64,000 bases of DNA from IMG/VR virus record IMGVR_UViG_3300035701_007101, one strand, 5' to 3'. Below are positions 2,994-51,076 of this stretch, in pieces (position 1 is the stretch's first letter; each line of letters starts with the position of its first letter). The position numbers and the translations under genes were made by a program. The DNA is from a virus. Taxonomy: Duplodnaviria; Heunggongvirae; Uroviricota; Caudoviricetes. The notes under the pieces are model-generated. The model saw only the letters and a program-made list of their open reading frames with translations, was not told the origin of the DNA and made no database searches.

Positions 2994-3911
2994 CTATGCA
3001 AAGATAGCAACAAACTCGTCGAATTTTTGAAGTTGCGAAGTAAATGAATATGTTTTAAATAACTCCTTCAAATACAAAAAATTAGGCTTTGCTTGTTCAA
3101 TTTCAAGATTAACGTCCATATCTAACTTGATAGTTACTAGTTGCTTTGCAAGTTTCAATATATCTTTTGACGAATTAATCTTTTGTTGTAAGTTGTCACT
3201 AACAGGTGCTTTCTTATCTTTCTTAAACTTATAATGTATATCATTATTTATAATATTATCTATATTACCGTTACATTGAATCAATTCTGCTGCAGTTTTT
3301 TTGCCTACACCATCAATACCTTCAATGTTATCAGACGAATCACCCGTTAATGACAACCAACTTACAAATAAATTTGGTGCTATTCCATATCTCTCTTTAA
3401 CTTCATCAGGTGTAATCAATTTATCATCTTCTTGACCAGCACCAGGATGTAGCACATGAACATTATTACTTACTAATTGATTAAAATCTTTATCACCAGA
3501 AATAATTAGTACTCTATAACCTTTTAATCGTGCTTGTTTCGTTAATATACCAATAAGATCATCTGCTTCAACATTTGCAGTTTGACATTGTAATACGCCC
3601 AGTGCTTTTAAAAATTCTTGAGTTATTCCAATTTGAAATAAATAATCAGGCGTTCTTGATATCCTATTAGCTTTATATGTTGAGCATAATGTGTTTCTAA
3701 AGCCTTTGCCTGGACCGTCCCAAACAACAATTAATTTATCGTTTTCTTGCTTAAGATCTTTATATATTTTTTTGATTGATTGAATGAAACCAAAAGCAGC
3801 ACCAGTTAGAACTTCTTGACCATCAATAACAGCTCTCAAATGCTGAAATGACGGCACATGAAAAGTTCTACTTAACAAATGACTAGCATCAACTAAAATA
3901 ACTTTACTCAT
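2994..3911 (-). CDS. 5'-3' exonuclease / flap endonuclease (PolA N-terminal-like)
   Basis: ILVDAS, VVWDG, YKANR, EADDLIG, ISGDKDF, LTGDSSDNIEGIDGVGKKTA. Confidence 0.93.
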   Translation of the reverse strand: MSKVILVDASHLLSRTFHVPSFQHLRAVIDGQEVLTGAAFGFIQSIKKIYKDLKQENDKLIVVWDGPGKGFRNTLCSTYKANRISRTPDYLFQIGITQEFLKALGVLQCQTANVEADDLIGILTKQARLKGYRVLIISGDKDFNQLVSNNVHVLHPGAGQEDDKLITPDEVKERYGIAPNLFVSWLSLTGDSSDNIEGIDGVGKKTAAELIQCNGNIDNIINNDIHYKFKKDKKAPVSDNLQQKINSSKDILKLAKQLVTIKLDMDVNLEIEQAKPNFLYLKELFKTYSFTSQLQKFDEFVAIFA

Positions 3912-4416
3912 TTTCTTTATCTTTTGCTTCTTTTGCTTTTAAAATTTTATCAGCATCTTCTCCGTGTATACCATAACGTTGTAAAAGATATGAAAAATCT
4001 TGAACATCATGCTTTAGACATTTTCTGTAATCTTTTGAACCTTCATCAAAACCTTGTTCAGGTATATGCATCAGTTCATGTAAAATTAATAAATATTTTG
4101 CAGATTTTTCAATCGTAACCCAATTTTCAAAATGAACTGTTAATATGTAATCAACATTAGAGAAAAATGCAAACATGGGTTTTAGACCATAAATTTTCGC
4201 TTGTATAGTTGATTTTTTCTTCGAAAATGAGATGTAGCCAATTTTATTTGGTCGTATTTGAGATAGAATTTCTGGATATAACTTAATAAGATCCATAACA
4301 ATTGGAAAAATGTCTTCTTGCTTTTGCCACTTTGGTGTAGCAGGTTTTTGAGGCTTGTCTTCAATGTCATCTTTAACTTCTACAACATTGTCTTCAACAT
4401 TTTGTGGTACTGGCAT
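3904..4416 (-). CDS. putative phage metallopeptidase
   Basis: LILHELMHI (HExxH) followed by LKHDVQDF. Confidence 0.7.
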   Translation of the reverse strand: MPVPQNVEDNVVEVKDDIEDKPQKPATPKWQKQEDIFPIVMDLIKLYPEILSQIRPNKIGYISFSKKKSTIQAKIYGLKPMFAFFSNVDYILTVHFENWVTIEKSAKYLLILHELMHIPEQGFDEGSKDYRKCLKHDVQDFSYLLQRYGIHGEDADKILKAKEAKDKENE

Positions 4417-4437
4417 AGAATTCTCCTCTTTTTAAAA

Positions 4438-4525
4438 TGGCCCACTTGGATAGTTTTGAACTATCTAAATTGTAATACTATCGCGAATCGACATACAATC
4501 TAAACCCTCTGTAGAGTACAAGTGG
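4438..4525 (-). tRNA. atypical tRNA-like RNA, 88 nt, encoded CCA; one parse gives Asp(GUC) with a 14-nt anticodon-loop insert
   Basis: Perfect 7-bp acceptor CCACTTG/CAAGTGG + G + CCA; T-arm GATAG-TTCAAAA-CTATC; T8 A9; ATTGT/ACAAT stem; D-arm non-canonical. Confidence 0.65.
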
Positions 4526-4575
4526 TTATGATAATAGTATTATATACCGGAAATTATGATAAATTTATGAACGAT

Positions 4576-6192
4576 TTAAAATTTGCAGGCTTCGATAAAC
4601 CAATCAGGTAGAATGTCTTTATTTTTCTTGATAAACCATTTTGCGCTACTATCAAAAATATAAGCAGTTCCCCAATCTTCTTCTGATCTAAAAATTCTAC
4701 CATAACTCTGTACTAATGTCAAACATGTCTGCCAAGTATACCAGTCTGGATCTATTTGCATTCTTCTAGCAATTTGTTTATCACCGATATAAAGATGAGG
4801 TATTTTAACAATCACTTCCCAACGAGCTAAATCATCTTTTAAATCGAGACCTTCAGTCATTGATGGTGAAACTAATACACTTGCAGTTTTAGATGATAAA
4901 AATTTACTTAACATCTTCTCTCGCGACTCAGAATCATGAAATATTAATCTATCATTGTTGCAATTATCTCTAATATAGTTGGCAATTTTATACGAGTGAC
5001 AGTGAACAAGCCCGCGTTCTTCTCTATGATAATCTAAAGCTTTATTTAAATCAGTGACAATATTTGGTAGTGTTTCTTGAATCTTGTTTAAATTCATATA
5101 TCCACTATTTGCAAAAAATATTTTTCTATTCTCTGCTGGAAACGTAGACGGTGTTCGTACAAATTGAGCTTCGTCAGCGTTAATACCAAGACTTCTACAA
5201 AAGCTATTTTTATCTAAAATTGTTGCTGACAGATATATTCTATGTTCACCGAGATTAAGTAATGAATCACCTGCAAATAGATTGATTGTTAATGGTCTAA
5301 ATACTATTCTTTTCATTTTTAATTTTTCAGTTTTTTCAATAGTAAAAATCCATTCAACATCATTTAGAGTATTTAGAAACTTGTTCATTCTTCTATACAG
5401 TCTATCAACTTCATCAATTTGTGACACTAACTCTGATGCTTCACCTGATAATTTTTTAAATTGATGAGAATCTCTATTTAAATTAACTCTATAATTATTT
5501 AAATTATTTAATTCTTTAGTCTTGCTAACTAAAATATTATTAACAATACTAACATTTTCTTTTATCCACTTATGATATTCATCTAATGTGTCGTATGAAG
5601 GAATGTTGACAGGATAGCCTACTCGCTTAAACATATATTCTGACAATAAAAACTCGATGAAATTTAAAACTTCTGATTCAATACAGTGAGCTTCATCTAA
5701 TATCAGTAATTTTCTTTTAGTAAACGTTTTTTTTGGATCACACTCAACAACACTTAAAAGATATGCATAATTCATCATTGCAACTTGAGCACCAGCTGTT
5801 CTCATTTTAGCAATTTGATATAAGCAAGTGCCGTTTTTATAACAATCTTTTCTTGCTGATTCATAGCATTCATTACACATAGTGGGCGCTCCCAAAAATG
5901 TGCATTCATAATTTCCGCGACCTTTTAAAACTGATATTCTTGAATCTTCAGTGAAATCACGAACATATTGATCTTGAAGTATTTTTTGTGAAGTTAAGCA
6001 ATATGCATTTGTTGACCATAAACCGCAAGCAATTGCAACAGGTGACTTACCAGAACCTGTTGGCATTTCAATGATAATGTCTTTTATACCTTTATCAAAA
6101 AACTCTTGAATTTTTTCTATAGTTTCTTTTTGATGAAGTCTGTATGATGAAAATGGAAAAAAATCAGTTATATTGTTATTAGGTTTTAACAT
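4576..6192 (-). CDS. DinG/Rad3-like SF2 helicase
   Basis: EMPTGSGKS, LILDEAH, YLSATI, SMTEGLDLKDD, QSYGRIFRSEEDWG. Confidence 0.9.
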   Translation of the reverse strand: MLKPNNNITDFFPFSSYRLHQKETIEKIQEFFDKGIKDIIIEMPTGSGKSPVAIACGLWSTNAYCLTSQKILQDQYVRDFTEDSRISVLKGRGNYECTFLGAPTMCNECYESARKDCYKNGTCLYQIAKMRTAGAQVAMMNYAYLLSVVECDPKKTFTKRKLLILDEAHCIESEVLNFIEFLLSEYMFKRVGYPVNIPSYDTLDEYHKWIKENVSIVNNILVSKTKELNNLNNYRVNLNRDSHQFKKLSGEASELVSQIDEVDRLYRRMNKFLNTLNDVEWIFTIEKTEKLKMKRIVFRPLTINLFAGDSLLNLGEHRIYLSATILDKNSFCRSLGINADEAQFVRTPSTFPAENRKIFFANSGYMNLNKIQETLPNIVTDLNKALDYHREERGLVHCHSYKIANYIRDNCNNDRLIFHDSESREKMLSKFLSSKTASVLVSPSMTEGLDLKDDLARWEVIVKIPHLYIGDKQIARRMQIDPDWYTWQTCLTLVQSYGRIFRSEEDWGTAYIFDSSAKWFIKKNKDILPDWFIEACKF

Positions 6193-8830: not shown

Positions 8831-9574
8831 TTATACATTTGGTAAGTTAAACTCTTTAATAGTTTCATTTTTTATTCTTTTTAAAACGCGTGCAATTTTT
8901 CGTCTTTTACTAGCTGATATTGTAGGCTCTGATTTATTATATTTTATAGCTAACTCTTTTCCTGACACTAAACCTTGAATATCATCTCTGATAAACACAT
9001 CCCATTGCATGGGTGTTAAATATAATTTGCATTTGTCAAGTATATATTCTGCTAATATTTCTTCATTTTCAGATATGTCGTCATGAGGTTCAGTTATTAC
9101 TTCCATTAGTGTTAATGATTTGTCATCATTACCAATAGATTTTGAAAGACTGTCAGTAAATAGATGAGGACTTAATCTTTTTATAATAGTTTTATTGTCT
9201 TTTGTTTCAATAACTTCAATTGTTCTTTTCTTTTTCCGTAATTCGACAATTACTCTATTAACAGTTTTTTCAAGAGCTGTATACATGTACGTTGAAAATT
9301 TTACTTGATAGCTAAAATCAAATTTTTCTGATACAGCTTTATATAAACAACATAAACATCTTTGACATAAGTCATCTTCATCGTAAATATCAAAACCATT
9401 TTTAAACTTTGATATTCTCCATTTAACATATTTTTTAATTGTAACTTGCCAAGAATTTTTACCTTCATCTCTTGGTAGTGCAAGAACTTGATTAAAAATC
9501 TTGCTCTTTTGTGCATCAGATGTACCTGGCTCTCGATACTTTATGATCAACTGCTCATCAAAAGATGAATTCAT
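8831..9574 (-). CDS. sigma-70 family RNA polymerase sigma factor
   Basis: Region 2-like EDDLCQ...LYKAVSEKFD...FSTYMY; region 4 HTH GKELAIKYNKSEPTIS. Confidence 0.8.
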   Translation of the reverse strand: MNSSFDEQLIIKYREPGTSDAQKSKIFNQVLALPRDEGKNSWQVTIKKYVKWRISKFKNGFDIYDEDDLCQRCLCCLYKAVSEKFDFSYQVKFSTYMYTALEKTVNRVIVELRKKKRTIEVIETKDNKTIIKRLSPHLFTDSLSKSIGNDDKSLTLMEVITEPHDDISENEEILAEYILDKCKLYLTPMQWDVFIRDDIQGLVSGKELAIKYNKSEPTISASKRRKIARVLKRIKNETIKEFNLPNV

Positions 9575-9653: not shown

Positions 9654-10802
9654 TTATCTTAATAAATCGATGTTATTTATTGCGTTATCAAAATATTGTT
9701 TAAATTCTTCGTGTGAGCATTCATCTGGATCTTTATTTGGTGGTAAAACAATGTTGCAAACATCAACATTTCTACTTAAATTGCTTATTATCATTCTAGC
9801 TGCTTCTTGACCGGCATTTTTATCATTTTTATCGTCATTATCTAATGCTAAATAAACTTGGTCAAATGTTGCTAATATTAAGGCTTTATTTTGTTCACTT
9901 AATTTTGTTCCACACAAAGCAACACTATTAAATTTCCACACAAATAGTCTCATACAATCAAATACACCTTCAACAAGTATAACATAATCACTATTTTTTT
10001 TAGCATTGTCAAAGTTAAATAGCAATGTTTTAATAGATGAACCATAAATTATATTCTTAATTTCTTCGTTTTCATCTAATACTGGAGGATATAATATTTT
10101 TTTACATTCGTATTTAATTTTAAGATCTGCTAGTTCTGTAACAGTAAGTTTATCTTTTTTTGCTTGCTTTAAAAGCTTAAGCCACTTATTTGCTTTGCCT
10201 GACATGTCACGAGCAGCAAATGATAATACTTCATTATTCATTGTGATTGGTACTATTAATCTATCTTTATAGTAACCAGAAGCAGCATATTTGAGGTTCC
10301 ATAAATGTATCATAGATCTACTAACACGTTTTCTTATTTTTATGAAATGTTTTTCTGCATCTTCAAATTCTAGATATTTCGAAAAATCAATAATTGTTTT
10401 TTTACATTGCTTATCAGTTTCAACGTCGTCATTTTGCAATTCACTTATTTCATTTAACAATGCATCAATATGACTTTCACTTCCTTCATAGCCAACCATA
10501 CTTTTTACAAATTCAACTGCATCATCAAATGTAGATAAATTTTCTAATTCTTTTACTAATGAAAAAAAATTTCGTCCACCACATACAAAACAATTATAAA
10601 CGCCATTCTTAATATTAAAACCAGCAGACGGAGAAGAATCTCTATGCCCAGGCAAAATACATTGCATTTTAAACCAATTACCAAATTTACTATCGATTTT
10701 TACATTATAGTGCTTAAAAAAATTTTGTACGTCAACTTTTTGATATATATTTTGTAATTCGACTTTACTGTACATAATTCTTATTATATACTTATTTAAC
10801 AC
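9654..10802 (-). CDS. dnaG: DNA primase (CHC2 zinc finger + TOPRIM)
   Basis: CILPGHRDSSPS...YNCFVCGG, RLIVPI, ILVEGVFD, YLALDND, KDPDE. Confidence 0.9.
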   Translation of the reverse strand: MLNKYIIRIMYSKVELQNIYQKVDVQNFFKHYNVKIDSKFGNWFKMQCILPGHRDSSPSAGFNIKNGVYNCFVCGGRNFFSLVKELENLSTFDDAVEFVKSMVGYEGSESHIDALLNEISELQNDDVETDKQCKKTIIDFSKYLEFEDAEKHFIKIRKRVSRSMIHLWNLKYAASGYYKDRLIVPITMNNEVLSFAARDMSGKANKWLKLLKQAKKDKLTVTELADLKIKYECKKILYPPVLDENEEIKNIIYGSSIKTLLFNFDNAKKNSDYVILVEGVFDCMRLFVWKFNSVALCGTKLSEQNKALILATFDQVYLALDNDDKNDKNAGQEAARMIISNLSRNVDVCNIVLPPNKDPDECSHEEFKQYFDNAINNIDLLR

Positions 10803-10814
10803 AATGATTTATGC

Positions 10815-14134: not shown

Positions 14135-15433
14135 ATGATTGATGCAATTAAAATAATCAAAAAACTAGATGATAACGGCTTTCAAGCAGTATTAGCTGGC
14201 GGTTGTGTCAGAGACTTAATTCTTGGTTTACCATCAAATGACTATGATATTGCTACAAATGCTACGCCTGAAGTCATAGAGTCATTATTTGAGAAAACAA
14301 TACCAGTTGGCAAATCATTTGGCGTTATAATTGTCATAGAAAATGACAAACAATATGAAATTGCTACGTTTCGTGAGGACGGAAAATATTCTGATAATAG
14401 GAGACCAGATTCAGTTACCTTTGGCTCAATAGAAGAAGACGCTAAAAGACGAGACTTAACGATAAATGGCATTTTTTACGATCCAATAATAAATAAATAC
14501 TATGATTTTGTCAATGGCGTAGACGACATTCAACGCAAAATTGTTCGTTTTATTGGCGATCCCAATAAGAGAATTGAAGAAGATAAACTAAGAATATTAC
14601 GCGCTTGTAGATTTTCAATTAAATTTGATTTTGAGATTGAAAAAGAATCTTTCGAAGCTATTAAAAATCATGCTCATGAAATTCAAACAGTTTCAATTGA
14701 ACGTATAAGTGATGAATTTATTAAAATATTACGTTTAAGAAAACCCAAAAAAGCATTTGATTTACTATTTGAAACTAAACTCATTGACTACGTCTTACCT
14801 GAAATAAGAACTTTGCAAGGTGTAGAACAACCAATTGACTATCATCCCGAGGGCTGCGTTCTTACACATACAATAAAAACACTTGAAAATTTGCCTGAAA
14901 ATGCATCAGATGAATTATTGATGGGCATGTTATTACATGATATTGGAAAACCTGCAACTTTTGAAATGCTTGATAGAATTAGATTTAATGGTCATGATAA
15001 AAAAGGAGCTGAGATAGCAGAAGTTATTCTCAAAAGAATGAAATTTTCAAATGATTTCATTGACAGAGTAGTTTCTCTAGTTTCAGATCACATGAAATTT
15101 ATGGCTGCACCTATCATGAAAATGTCTACTCTCAAACGGTTTGTACGACAACCTCATTTTAATGAACATCTAGTTTTGCACAGAGCAGATTGTTTATCAT
15201 CTCATGGCAATTTAGACAATTATAATTTTGTTGTACAAAAGATGAATGAAATACCGCCAGAGAAAATAAAACCACCTAAATTAATCACAGGTAAAGATTT
15301 ATTAGATTTAGGCTTTATAGAAGGGCCTATTTTCAGAACAATTTTAGATGATATTGACGATAAACAATTAGAAGAAATAATTAAAGATAGGGAGTCAGCA
15401 CTGTTATATGTCAAACAACAATATACAAAATAA
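14135..15433 (+). CDS. cca: CCA-adding tRNA nucleotidyltransferase with HD domain
   Basis: AGGCVRD, DYDIAT, RRDLTING, EDKLRILRA, LLHDIGKP. Confidence 0.9.
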   Translation: MIDAIKIIKKLDDNGFQAVLAGGCVRDLILGLPSNDYDIATNATPEVIESLFEKTIPVGKSFGVIIVIENDKQYEIATFREDGKYSDNRRPDSVTFGSIEEDAKRRDLTINGIFYDPIINKYYDFVNGVDDIQRKIVRFIGDPNKRIEEDKLRILRACRFSIKFDFEIEKESFEAIKNHAHEIQTVSIERISDEFIKILRLRKPKKAFDLLFETKLIDYVLPEIRTLQGVEQPIDYHPEGCVLTHTIKTLENLPENASDELLMGMLLHDIGKPATFEMLDRIRFNGHDKKGAEIAEVILKRMKFSNDFIDRVVSLVSDHMKFMAAPIMKMSTLKRFVRQPHFNEHLVLHRADCLSSHGNLDNYNFVVQKMNEIPPEKIKPPKLITGKDLLDLGFIEGPIFRTILDDIDDKQLEEIIKDRESALLYVKQQYTK

Positions 15434-15668
15434 TCCGTGTCTTACGTGTCATGGTAGTAATTGCTGTGTTGATCCTATTGAAGTATTTCCGCTTGATTAT
15501 ATGCCATATAAATTAGCTAGAGATGGCAAAATGATTGTTAATGATAAAAAGCAATGTATTGCACTTGTAAATGGTAAATGCTCAATTTATGAAGACAGAC
15601 CAATTGTGTGTAGAAAATATAAATGTGAAAAATTCTTCAAAGGAACAAATAATGGATGTATCACTTGA
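15408..15668 (+). CDS. YkgJ-like Cys cluster protein
   Basis: [10 protein letters not shown]...CIAL...[16 protein letters not shown]. Confidence 0.75.
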
Positions 15669-15888
15669 AAAAAGAATAAAAGAAATTATTTCAGATAAAT
15701 TATCTGTCAATGTAGATAAAATTGTTCCTCAAGCAAACATTGTAGATGATTTGGGTGCTGATTCATTAGATGAAGTTGAATTATTGATGGCTTTTGAAGA
15801 TGAATTTGATATTGAAATACCTGACGAAGATGCTATGAAATTTAAAACAGTCAAAGATGTTTTATCTTATATAGATTTAAAAGTATGA
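15652..15888 (+). CDS. acpP: acyl carrier protein
   Basis: [29 protein letters not shown]; start moved to ATG 15652. Confidence 0.92.
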
Positions 15889-17401: not shown

Positions 17402-17450
17402 GTATAAATTAAAGTATATTTGCATATAATACTCTTTAAAAGGAGAATTT

Positions 17451-26291: not shown

Positions 26292-26351
26292 ATTAATGCA
26301 GATGCATTATAATATAATTATTGATGAATTAAATACCTTAATATGAGGTTT

Positions 26352-26639
26352 ATGATGAATATAACGAATGTACAAATCATTTTCCCTAAAAAAACTGATC
26401 TAAAAGAAAAACTTAAATGTTTTGTAAACGTTATTTTTGATGATTCTTTTATTGTAAGAAATTTAAGAATAATTGAAGGATCTAACGGCTTCTTTGTTGT
26501 AATGCCCAATTATAAGAAAAAAGATGGAAGTTTTCAAGACGTTGCTCATCCTCTAACAAATGTATTTCGTCAAACAATAGACGATAAAGTTTTAGAAGCT
26601 TATGAAAATGCGTTAAATCGGTCTACAAATACTGTTTGA
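26352..26639 (+). CDS. spoVG: SpoVG-family nucleic-acid-binding protein
   Basis: FDDSFIVRNLRIIEGSNGFFVVMPNYKKKDGSFQDVAHP; GAGG RBS. Confidence 0.92.
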   Translation: MMNITNVQIIFPKKTDLKEKLKCFVNVIFDDSFIVRNLRIIEGSNGFFVVMPNYKKKDGSFQDVAHPLTNVFRQTIDDKVLEAYENALNRSTNTV

Positions 26640-34172: not shown

Positions 34173-35663
34173 ATGTATGTAAATGAGCAACAGAAGCGTG
34201 CCATTATAGATGTAATTAGTTTGCTCAAAAATCAGTTTGACATTAAAGATAATGATTCAACTGTTATTGATCAATCATTAAATGAAAAACAACTGCAAAT
34301 TGATAAAAAAGATCAAGAATTAACTATAAAAGAAAATAAATTTAGACAGTTGACTAGCAAGGAACTTAATCAGATTAGACAACATAAAAATAGTATAAGA
34401 AAGCAACAATTTGAAATTAAGCAACAATTAGAAGATATTAATAAAAAACTATACGCTTTATCGAGTCAAGAACAATCTGTAAAAAAAGCATTTGATGAAT
34501 TAAAAGAAAAAGATCAAGAATTTTTTCAACAGCTTGAACAAATATCAGGTATTTCAAAAGATGATGCAATAAAATTACTTTGCTCTAAATTAGAAAATGA
34601 AGCGAGAATAAGAGCAAACAATATAATCAAACAAATTATTAATGAAGCTAATAATAATGCTCAAGTTGAAGCAAAAAATATTTTACTGTATGCAATTCAA
34701 AAAGAAGCAATTAATGTTGTTTCTGAATTTGCAACTTGCACAATTGATCTACCCAATGAAGCAATAAAGGGTAAGATTATTGGTAGAGAAGGTCGAAATG
34801 TTAGGCTATTTGAAGAATTAACAGGTGTGTCAGTTATAATTGATGATTCACCTGAAATTGTTGTTTTATCGTGTTATGATCCTATTAAAAGAGATATTGC
34901 TAAGATAGCAATGCAAAAATTAATTTCAGATGGCAGAATTCATCAAAAAAGAATTGAAGAAGTTATAGAGCAGGCAACAAAACAAATTGATGATGAAATG
35001 AAAAATGTTGCAATTAAGATGTTGAATAAATTTCAAATAGTTGATATTCATCCTGAAATTATAAAATTAATTGGCAAATTGAAATATAGATCAAGCTATT
35101 CACAGAATGTGTTAGATCATAGTTGTGAAGTTGCATTTATTGCAGGTAATATTGCAGCAGAGTTAAAATTAGATAAAAAGTTATTAACAAGGGCAGGCCT
35201 ACTTCATGATATTGGTAAATCAGTTGATAGATTATTGCCTGGGTCACACCCAGAGTTAGGTGCAGAAATTGCTAAAAATTTTAGTGAATCAGATCAAATT
35301 TGTAAAATGATTGTTGAGCATCATGAAGAGAAAGTGACGTCTATAAATTCATGGATAATTAAAACAGCAGATGTTTTATCATCTGCTAGACCGGGTGTTA
35401 GACAAGATACATTTGATACATATATAAAGAGATTGGAAGATTTAGAAAAAATAGCATTATCATTTAATGGAATAAAAACAGCCTTTGCCATATCAGCAGG
35501 AAGAGAGTTAAGAATAATAGTCAATGCTGAACAAGTAAATGATTCAGACGTTAATGTGTTAGCAGAAAACATTAAAGAAAAAATTGAGAAGACAATGACA
35601 TATCCTGGACAAATTAACGTTGTAGTAGTACGTGAGACAAAATGTTTTAAAATTGCAAACTAA
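34173..35663 (+). CDS. rny: ribonuclease Y (coiled coil + KH + HD), no N-terminal TM helix
   Basis: KGKIIGREGRNVR, LKYRSSYSQNVLDHS, LLHDIGK, ADVLSSARPG, AGRELR, YPGQI. Confidence 0.95.
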   Translation: MYVNEQQKRAIIDVISLLKNQFDIKDNDSTVIDQSLNEKQLQIDKKDQELTIKENKFRQLTSKELNQIRQHKNSIRKQQFEIKQQLEDINKKLYALSSQEQSVKKAFDELKEKDQEFFQQLEQISGISKDDAIKLLCSKLENEARIRANNIIKQIINEANNNAQVEAKNILLYAIQKEAINVVSEFATCTIDLPNEAIKGKIIGREGRNVRLFEELTGVSVIIDDSPEIVVLSCYDPIKRDIAKIAMQKLISDGRIHQKRIEEVIEQATKQIDDEMKNVAIKMLNKFQIVDIHPEIIKLIGKLKYRSSYSQNVLDHSCEVAFIAGNIAAELKLDKKLLTRAGLLHDIGKSVDRLLPGSHPELGAEIAKNFSESDQICKMIVEHHEEKVTSINSWIIKTADVLSSARPGVRQDTFDTYIKRLEDLEKIALSFNGIKTAFAISAGRELRIIVNAEQVNDSDVNVLAENIKEKIEKTMTYPGQINVVVVRETKCFKIAN

Positions 35664-50581: not shown

Positions 50582-51076
50582 ATGACAATTTATATTACAA
50601 TAGGCTTTCCTGGTTCAGGCAAAAGTACTTGGGCACGTAAAAAAGCTGCAGAAGAAAAAGATTTAATTATAATCAACAGAGATTCAATCAGATCGATGAT
50701 CAAAAACAATTACACTTTTGATTTTACTCTAGAACCTATGATCAAATGTATGACGATTGAATGTTTGAAAACTGCACTTAATTATAGCAAAAATGCAATT
50801 ATTGATGAAACTAATATAACAAAACAACAAAGAAAAGTGTGGCTTAATATAGTAAAAAATAGACTATGTAATGATACAAATTGTTGTAAAATAATTTTTA
50901 CTTGGTTTATAGAAAACACAAATAATGTATTGTATAGAATGAATGATGCTAGAGGCTATACTGAATCAAAATGGCAATCAATAATTAATGACATGAAACA
51001 AAAATTTGAAGAGCCTTCATTAGATGAAGGAGTAAACGAAATCATCAAAATAGGAATTATGAATGAAAAAAATTGA
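50582..51076 (+). CDS. P-loop kinase (AAA_33 / polynucleotide-kinase-like)
   Basis: GFPGSGKST, NRDSIR, IIDETN. Confidence 0.8.
   Translation: MTIYITIGFPGSGKSTWARKKAAEEKDLIIINRDSIRSMIKNNYTFDFTLEPMIKCMTIECLKTALNYSKNAIIDETNITKQQRKVWLNIVKNRLCNDTNCCKIIFTWFIENTNNVLYRMNDARGYTESKWQSIINDMKQKFEEPSLDEGVNEIIKIGIMNEKN

Follow-up and report, generated by a model that had tools for sequence, protein, structure and literature searches.

A conserved tRNA-shaped RNA gene in a narrow clade of jumbo phages

Species 1 RNA of phage T4 (rnaC; NC_000866.4) and RNA1 and RNA2 of phage T5 (NC_005859.1) are annotated as tRNA-like stable RNAs of unknown function. They are 125–144 nt long, are located inside tRNA clusters, and combine an acceptor stem and T arm of tRNA type with an enlarged centre that lacks a standard anticodon loop. 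The RNA gene described here, found in a 64,000-nucleotide stretch of IMG/VR virus record IMGVR_UViG_3300035701_007101 (the window), is likewise phage-encoded and similarly constructed, but it is only 88 nt long, stands alone in an mRNA leader, lacks a variable arm, and has a D hairpin capped by a tetraloop without GG. No homology to rnaC, rnaD or the T5 RNAs was found, and searches of T4, T5 and three Kutterviruses with model R1 gave no match. The sequence comparisons suggest that, among the tRNA-like RNAs of phages, the element represents a small family that is new but of a kind similar to those of T4 and T5; it is not described in the literature searched. A Kuttervirus tRNA-like gene with a 22-nt loop was rejected as a relative on account of its canonical D arm and different hairpin. 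Oversized tRNA-like genes are also present in Kuttervirus tRNA clusters (L308:2047–2182, L308:2439–2527, L310:2148–2275 and L312:175–300), with sequences unrelated to the element.

The element is predicted to form a four-helix tRNA-like fold (Table 1) with an MFE of −26.7 kcal/mol (z −4.08), and none of 200 shuffled sequences is equally stable. A previous annotation of this DNA by a model without database searches (the sequence-only reading) had reported tRNA features on the minus strand, and all of these are present: an acceptor stem of 7 Watson-Crick pairs, T8-A9, a TTCAAAA loop closed by a T stem of 5 bp, a discriminator G and an encoded CCA. The window contains a single frame that combines acceptor stem, T8, T arm and CCA, and no such frame appeared when the window was dinucleotide-shuffled 300 times (2 of the 300 shuffles had one if CCA was not required). 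The 7/5 acceptor–T branch, U8-A9, T loop, 7-bp acceptor stem, discriminator and CCA are shared with canonical tRNA (RF00005), and the T arm has the canonical 5-bp stem and TTCRA loop, with an atypical purine at base 60. The element differs from canonical tRNA in having neither G18G19 nor a 5-bp anticodon stem with a 7-nt loop, and there are 21–22 nt inside the stem. Its D arm, previously described as non-canonical, does lack G18G19 in the loop but is nonetheless a true hairpin of 4–5 bp with a 4-nt loop, and the G run of the D region is located in the hairpin stem, not in the loop. The 21-nt stretch enclosed by a 5-bp ATTGT/ACAAT stem is present as claimed; however, the three bases assigned to a variable loop can pair with bases preceding that stem, giving a 9-bp stem that leaves no variable loop and in the predicted fold leads straight into the T arm. 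The pairing register of the apical part varies among variants. ARAGORN does not call the element, either with introns allowed (a check proposed in the sequence-only reading) or with relaxed thresholds, and there is no Rfam call. The 9-codon micro-ORF that lies within the element shows no conservation, and its start codon is lost in one variant (L050).

We are confident that the element is a functional non-decoding tRNA-shaped RNA. The favoured reading, with a probability of roughly 0.55, is that a tRNA was remodelled into a small non-coding RNA gene that was inserted at the front of a DNA-metabolism operon, between a putative phage promoter and the ribosome-binding site of its metallopeptidase–exonuclease genes, and that acts in trans.

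Table 1. Positions of the tRNA-like RNA gene, its structural parts, its flanks and related features in the window.
Feature	Position	Strand	Basis or remark
tRNA-like RNA gene, whole element, 88 nt	4438–4525	−	Conserved in L005, L048/L049 and L050
Acceptor stem, 5′ strand (C1-G72, C2-G71, A3-U70)	4519–4525	−	Watson-Crick 7/7; invariant in three variants
Reduced D-type hairpin, 4 bp (5 with A9-U), 4-nt loop without G18G19	4505–4516	−	MFE in all variants
Long arm replacing the anticodon arm: 9-bp basal stem (4494–4502 with 4466–4474) plus variable apical part	4466–4502	−	
Long-arm apex, 9 nt, UUC-centred, invariant	4482–4490	−	Same in three variants
T arm: 5 bp plus 7-nt loop with T54-T55-C56-A57-A58	4449–4465	−	One compensatory and one one-sided change
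3′ acceptor strand, discriminator G (4441) and encoded CCA (4438–4440)	4438–4448	−	Invariant
Putative phage promoter (YATAAA, spacer, GYATATAAT)	4539–4569	−	−10 hexamer ends 13 nt before the RNA
Shine-Dalgarno-like site of metallopeptidase gene	4423–4428	−	9 nt past CCA; sequence
DinG/Rad3-like helicase (upstream gene)	4576–6192	−	Pfam; homolog names
Putative phage metallopeptidase, PF18894 (downstream gene)	3904–4416	−	Pfam
5′-3′ exonuclease (after metallopeptidase gene)	2994–3911	−	Pfam
HU-like gene (after exonuclease)	2401–2799	−	Pfam
Promoter-like motif before primase gene	10783–10813	−	Motif recurrence
Promoter-like motif before SbcC-like gene	17403–17430	+	Motif recurrence
CCA-adding-like enzyme	14135–15433		Profile match below curated cut-off; 10 kb from element
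RNase Y	34173–35663	+	NCBIfam TIGR03319, 522 bits vs cut-off 454
PNK-like kinase	50582–51076		Profile match below curated cut-off; 46 kb from element

The window is part of a bacterial-type jumbo phage encoding DnaG primase, HU, an SbcC-like ATPase, a sigma factor, SpoVG and RNase Y, with DnaE encoded just beyond it; relatives have genomes of up to 330–416 kb with 30–59 ordinary tRNA matches each. SpoVG (26343–26639) and an acyl-carrier-like protein (15613–15888) are, like RNase Y, host-type genes. The element is located outside any tRNA cluster reported by ARAGORN. The TATAAT already noticed upstream of it lies within a longer motif, further copies of which precede two other genes (three copies observed in the window versus 0.28 expected by chance), and from this sequence pattern the motif is a putative phage promoter. 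The motif is also found in L002 and L004, and in L004 it occupies the syntenic site, where there is no tRNA-like sequence. A phage sigma factor (8831–9574) is a candidate reader of the motif. L004 additionally has a strong GC-rich hairpin, possibly a terminator, between the helicase stop codon and the promoter motif (L004:1960–1985), and the window has none there. A search for terminator-like sites found none between the CCA of the element and the Shine-Dalgarno site, and the RNA is presumably co-transcribed with the downstream genes. Since its relative L004 has the promoter without the RNA, the RNA appears from these sequences to have been inserted into a pre-existing leader between the promoter and the metallopeptidase ribosome-binding site.

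This arrangement could also be that of a cis-acting leader, with the fold serving as a processing or stability signal (an RNase P, RNase Z or RNase Y cut, or a site for a tRNA-binding protein) that sets the level of the metallopeptidase–exonuclease mRNA, and with no task for the released RNA. The element nearly fills the 5′ leader, from 13 nt after the −10 hexamer to 9 nt before the Shine-Dalgarno site with no terminator, it is outside tRNA clusters, and the phage encodes RNase Y. However, L004 and L002 have the same gene pair without the element, the Shine-Dalgarno site is predicted to be unpaired with the fold, and neither the invariant acceptor sequence nor the apex is obviously needed for a cut signal; we consider a purely cis-acting role unlikely.

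Homologs were reached via the neighbouring proteins, and there are three distinct variants (the window, identical to L005; L048, identical to L049; and L050), confined to one narrow jumbo-phage clade, with nearly all of the variation supplied by just one of the three. L050, the most distant, differs from the window at 14 of 88 bases and by one insertion, whereas the flanking genes differ at 30 of 73 four-fold degenerate sites (41%), such that the element has changed more slowly (binomial P = 3e-7). All seven core-stem changes in L050 keep pairing (simulated P 0.001–0.014), with two pairs changed on both sides, one in the T stem and one in the long arm (U-A to C-G), and the D-type hairpin has two one-sided changes with its pairing kept. 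A column-shuffle control is not significant (49/500), there being only three rows. The acceptor stem, G73 and CCA are invariant (P = 0.03 for the acceptor plus NCCA escaping all 14 substitutions), and the acceptor stem is therefore uninformative on covariation. The 9-nt apex is also invariant and is flanked by six substitutions and the indel, although this is not significant against the element's own rate (P = 0.19). The sequence-only reading had considered that its proposal would fail if the element were not conserved or if homologs lacked acceptor/T-arm covariation; the element is conserved and the T stem covaries.

A further clade with 86% protein identity (from Logan) has a gap of equal size, 157 nt, and the element is absent from the syntenic site in relatives at 60–73% protein identity, indicating that it is dispensable at the family level. 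With model R1, four related phage records yield ordinary tRNAs alone and L178 and L181 yield nothing, and pattern scans of viral contigs including IMG/VR gave no homolog among the matches listed. In the metagenome and GTDB collections, scans picked up nothing beyond chance matches and other RNAs that carry the same acceptor stem; the metagenome collection is incomplete for this clade, as its scan missed the known JGI copies. BLAST of cultured phages gave chance matches only. We conclude that the element is a real, conserved and previously unannotated tRNA-shaped RNA gene of a narrow jumbo-phage clade.

This narrow distribution, with absence from all more distant relatives searched, and the loss of G18G19 and of a standard anticodon loop could also describe a decaying tRNA pseudogene retained by recent common descent alone. 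Against this, changes are far fewer than at neutral sites (P 3e-7), and those in the core stems are all pair-keeping, two of them compensatory. The pseudogene reading is largely refuted and scarcely probable, and a degenerate tRNA, one of the possibilities listed in the sequence-only reading, is unlikely given purifying selection with pair-preserving changes.

Another of those possibilities, a spliced tRNA-Asp, can be generalised to an intron-containing tRNA that is spliced at 37/38 by a putative phage endonuclease and the phage RNA ligase. The product would be tRNA(GUC) for the window and tRNA(AAC) for L050, and the long basal stem would replace the D and anticodon stems. Removal of 14 nt after position 37 in the window does leave the 7-nt loop that was claimed, with U33, GUC and G37, and each of the three variants allows a 37/38 excision with A32, U33, C36, G37 and U38 to be drawn, the putative intron always starting with the invariant apex. 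Archaeal and eukaryotic intron-containing pre-tRNAs offer a parallel in that the 13–14-nt insert drawable at 37/38 is within the archaeal range of 11–129 nt (PMC4090602), Lak megaphage tRNAs are reported to contain unexplained introns (10.1101/356790), and relatives of this phage carry tRNAs with group-I-like introns. The latter are ~200-nt introns in the anticodon loops of tRNA-Asn and tRNA-Thr genes of related jumbo phages (L037:1722–1997, + strand; L041:4837–5111, − strand).

The phage also has a kinase and an RNA ligase. The CCA enzyme and PNK-like kinase that had been reported in the window are supported by profile matches below the curated cut-offs, and of the RNA ligase and endonuclease that it was suggested to look for, a ligase gene lies just outside the window, but no tRNA splicing endonuclease is among the Pfam matches listed for the 82 window proteins, nor in 23 kb of L325. 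Kinases and RNA ligases for tRNA repair are common in jumbo phages (PMC7824862), and finding them here does not imply splicing.

Several features count against splicing. In L050 both would-be bases 34–35 are changed, and with the stem register kept as it is in the window, no excision is workable. Only a one-pair stem shift allows a 37/38 excision that leaves U33 and a purine at 37, and it gives a 13-nt intron and the anticodon AAC. Stem register and intron length thus both shift by one, and two anticodon positions change while the acceptor end does not. A bulge-helix-bulge consists of a 4-bp helix between two 3-nt bulges, and only two of the four central-helix pairs are available in each variant, in agreement with the earlier remark that there is no strict motif of this type. 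The proposed pairing of A32 with the third-last insert base is A-T in the window and L048 but is lost in L050, where it is A-A. At 13–14 nt the insert is far below group I intron size. The element consequently differs from archaeal and eukaryotic pre-tRNAs in lacking a bulge-helix-bulge, in its unconserved anticodon and 32–intron pair, and in belonging to a bacterial-type phage with no such endonuclease among the listed matches of its window proteins, and protein-spliced tRNA introns are not known in bacteria (PMC4090602). Bacterial tRNA-Asp determinants are G73, G10, G34-U35-C36 and C38 (PMC9976931); the element has G73, but base 10 is C or T and base 38 is T. It is thus very probably not an intron-containing aspartate tRNA, as G10 and C38 are absent, GUC becomes AAC in L050 and there is no bulge-helix-bulge. 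Amino-acid identity is not kept despite the unchanged acceptor end, and splicing in general, kept alive by the drawable excisions, has low odds.

The intact acceptor end, with G73 and CCA, could instead belong to an aminoacylated non-ribosomal carrier (an amino-acid donor), or to a direct decoder reading through the apex UUC. The compact core, with 1–2 linker bases, a small D loop, a 0–3-nt variable loop and G73, recalls tRNA-Pyl, whose synthetase ignores the anticodon. Charged yet non-translating irregular tRNAs do exist (PMC5389517). However, no synthetase or aminoacyl-transferase was found in the window scans, the G1-C72 pair of Glu and Pyl tRNAs is absent, and for decoding, the apex is 14 bp out and its UUC is preceded by A, not U, leaving a carrier or decoder very improbable.

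Allo-tRNAs and irregular tRNAs (Mukai et al., PMC5389517), some of which are inactive in translation, resemble the element in having a tetraloop D hairpin, a longer anticodon stem, G73 and a variable anticodon. Other candidates were rejected: allo-tRNAs have an 8/4 or 9/3 branch and a long variable arm, where the element has 7/5 and a variable region of 0–3 nt; a group I intron has a ribozyme core of ~200 nt or more ending in G, compared to an insert of 13–14 nt with no RF00028 match; tmRNA and TLD-only tmRNA have G3-U70, not A3-U70, and a stemless rather than a paired D region, and there is no RF00023 match; tRNA-Pyl fails on its defining bases; and an attP-type tRNA fragment is excluded because both acceptor strands are present and internal stems covary.

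The nearest acceptor stems are those of phage tRNA-Lys(CUU) and tRNA-Ile(GAU), and searching with that stem found it to be identical in tRNA-Ile (L051, L182) and tRNA-Lys (L053, L057), although these have A73 where the element has G73. The same stem, again with A73, is present in 'rewired' phage tRNA-Ile genes. A motif at bases 8–12 plus AGGGT, shared with the element, is found in 0 of 335 canonical tRNAs and 3 of 6 rewired tRNAs, some of the latter having been chosen by a pattern that includes part of the motif. As a lead only, tRNA-Ile or tRNA-Lys genes or the rewired phage tRNA-Ile genes are possible ancestors of the element.

Other tRNA-like genes were seen outside the window. Seven tRNA-Ile or tRNA-Arg genes have an anticodon hairpin almost directly after base 9 and a D-loop-like motif after that hairpin, and are missed by ARAGORN (L052:13767–13847, −; L055:1074–1153, +; L207:432–511, −; L220:5795–5874, +; L297:3169–3248, +; L176:1496–1575, +, of Microbacterium phage Magritte; and L039:8658–8740, −); the Magritte gene is unannotated. 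The related phage G003 encodes a 131-nt CCA-ended tRNA-like RNA (L039:11042–11172, −) that has no Rfam match; its acceptor-type stem is 9 bp long, its T stem is short, and it has a long arm rich in A and U. The same region contains a tmRNA beside two further matches, one to a group I intron and one RNase P-like. A 99-nt tRNA-like gene with two anticodon-type hairpins (L057:1964–2062, −) is miscalled by ARAGORN as tRNA-Pyl with an intron.

Returning to the element as a tRNA-derived RNA that acts in trans, transcription would start ~6–7 nt upstream of the RNA, and the short 5′ leader would be removed by RNase P, as in general tRNA processing. The tRNA elbow is read by RNase P and many tRNA-binding proteins (PMC4810234), and without G18G19 the elbow may be absent, which is a caveat for RNase P processing. 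A 3′ cut in the AU-rich run following the CCA would then release a free, stable 88-nt RNA, whose CCA end could be maintained by the phage CCA-adding enzyme. In favour of this reading, the phage encodes several proteins that handle tRNA, namely the CCA-adding-like enzyme, the PNK-like kinase, RNase Y and the RNA ligase. The RNA is very probably non-decoding because the arm is 9–14 bp without a conserved 7-nt loop, and the variants have no conserved anticodon (the would-be GUC becoming AAC). It is probably not aminoacylated, since C1-G72 plus G73 fits no bacterial identity set unless the matching anticodon or a long variable arm is also present. The term tRNA mimic in the sequence-only reading is apt as a description, with the acceptor end, more than an anticodon loop, as the invariant part.

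That the acceptor end is invariant suggests recognition of its sequence by a protein, and action in trans as a free RNA is thereby somewhat favoured, with the acceptor/T-arm half as the most likely acting part. The RNA might compete for, or act as a decoy of, a host protein with affinity for the acceptor ends of tRNAs, for example a tRNA-directed toxin, a defence effector or a sensor of uncharged tRNA; a decoy role in particular is a tentative suggestion and somewhat doubtful. No partner or target gene was found to travel with the element, and a search of the window and L325 for antisense targets, of the apex as well as of the whole element, gave none. Quite improbable is a more elaborate version, a purpose-built anti-defence decoy in which the invariant acceptor-CCA end and UUC-centred apex would soak up a tRNA-directed host toxin or an anticodon nuclease, repair and recycling of the RNA would fall to the kinase, ligase and CCA enzyme of the phage, and co-expression with replication genes would ensure its presence when DNA-damage-triggered tRNA nucleases switch on.

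Although known from three variants in an uncultured phage, the element is unusually small and simple, and solitary behind an identifiable promoter motif, and its natural pair-keeping variants show which parts are fixed, namely the acceptor end and possibly the apex. Its small size, simple build, lone position and natural variants make it an easy RNA to synthesise and to assay, be it for cleavage by RNase P, repair of the CCA end, charging or the binding of toxins. A decoy role, if true, would add RNA mimics to phage counter-defence.
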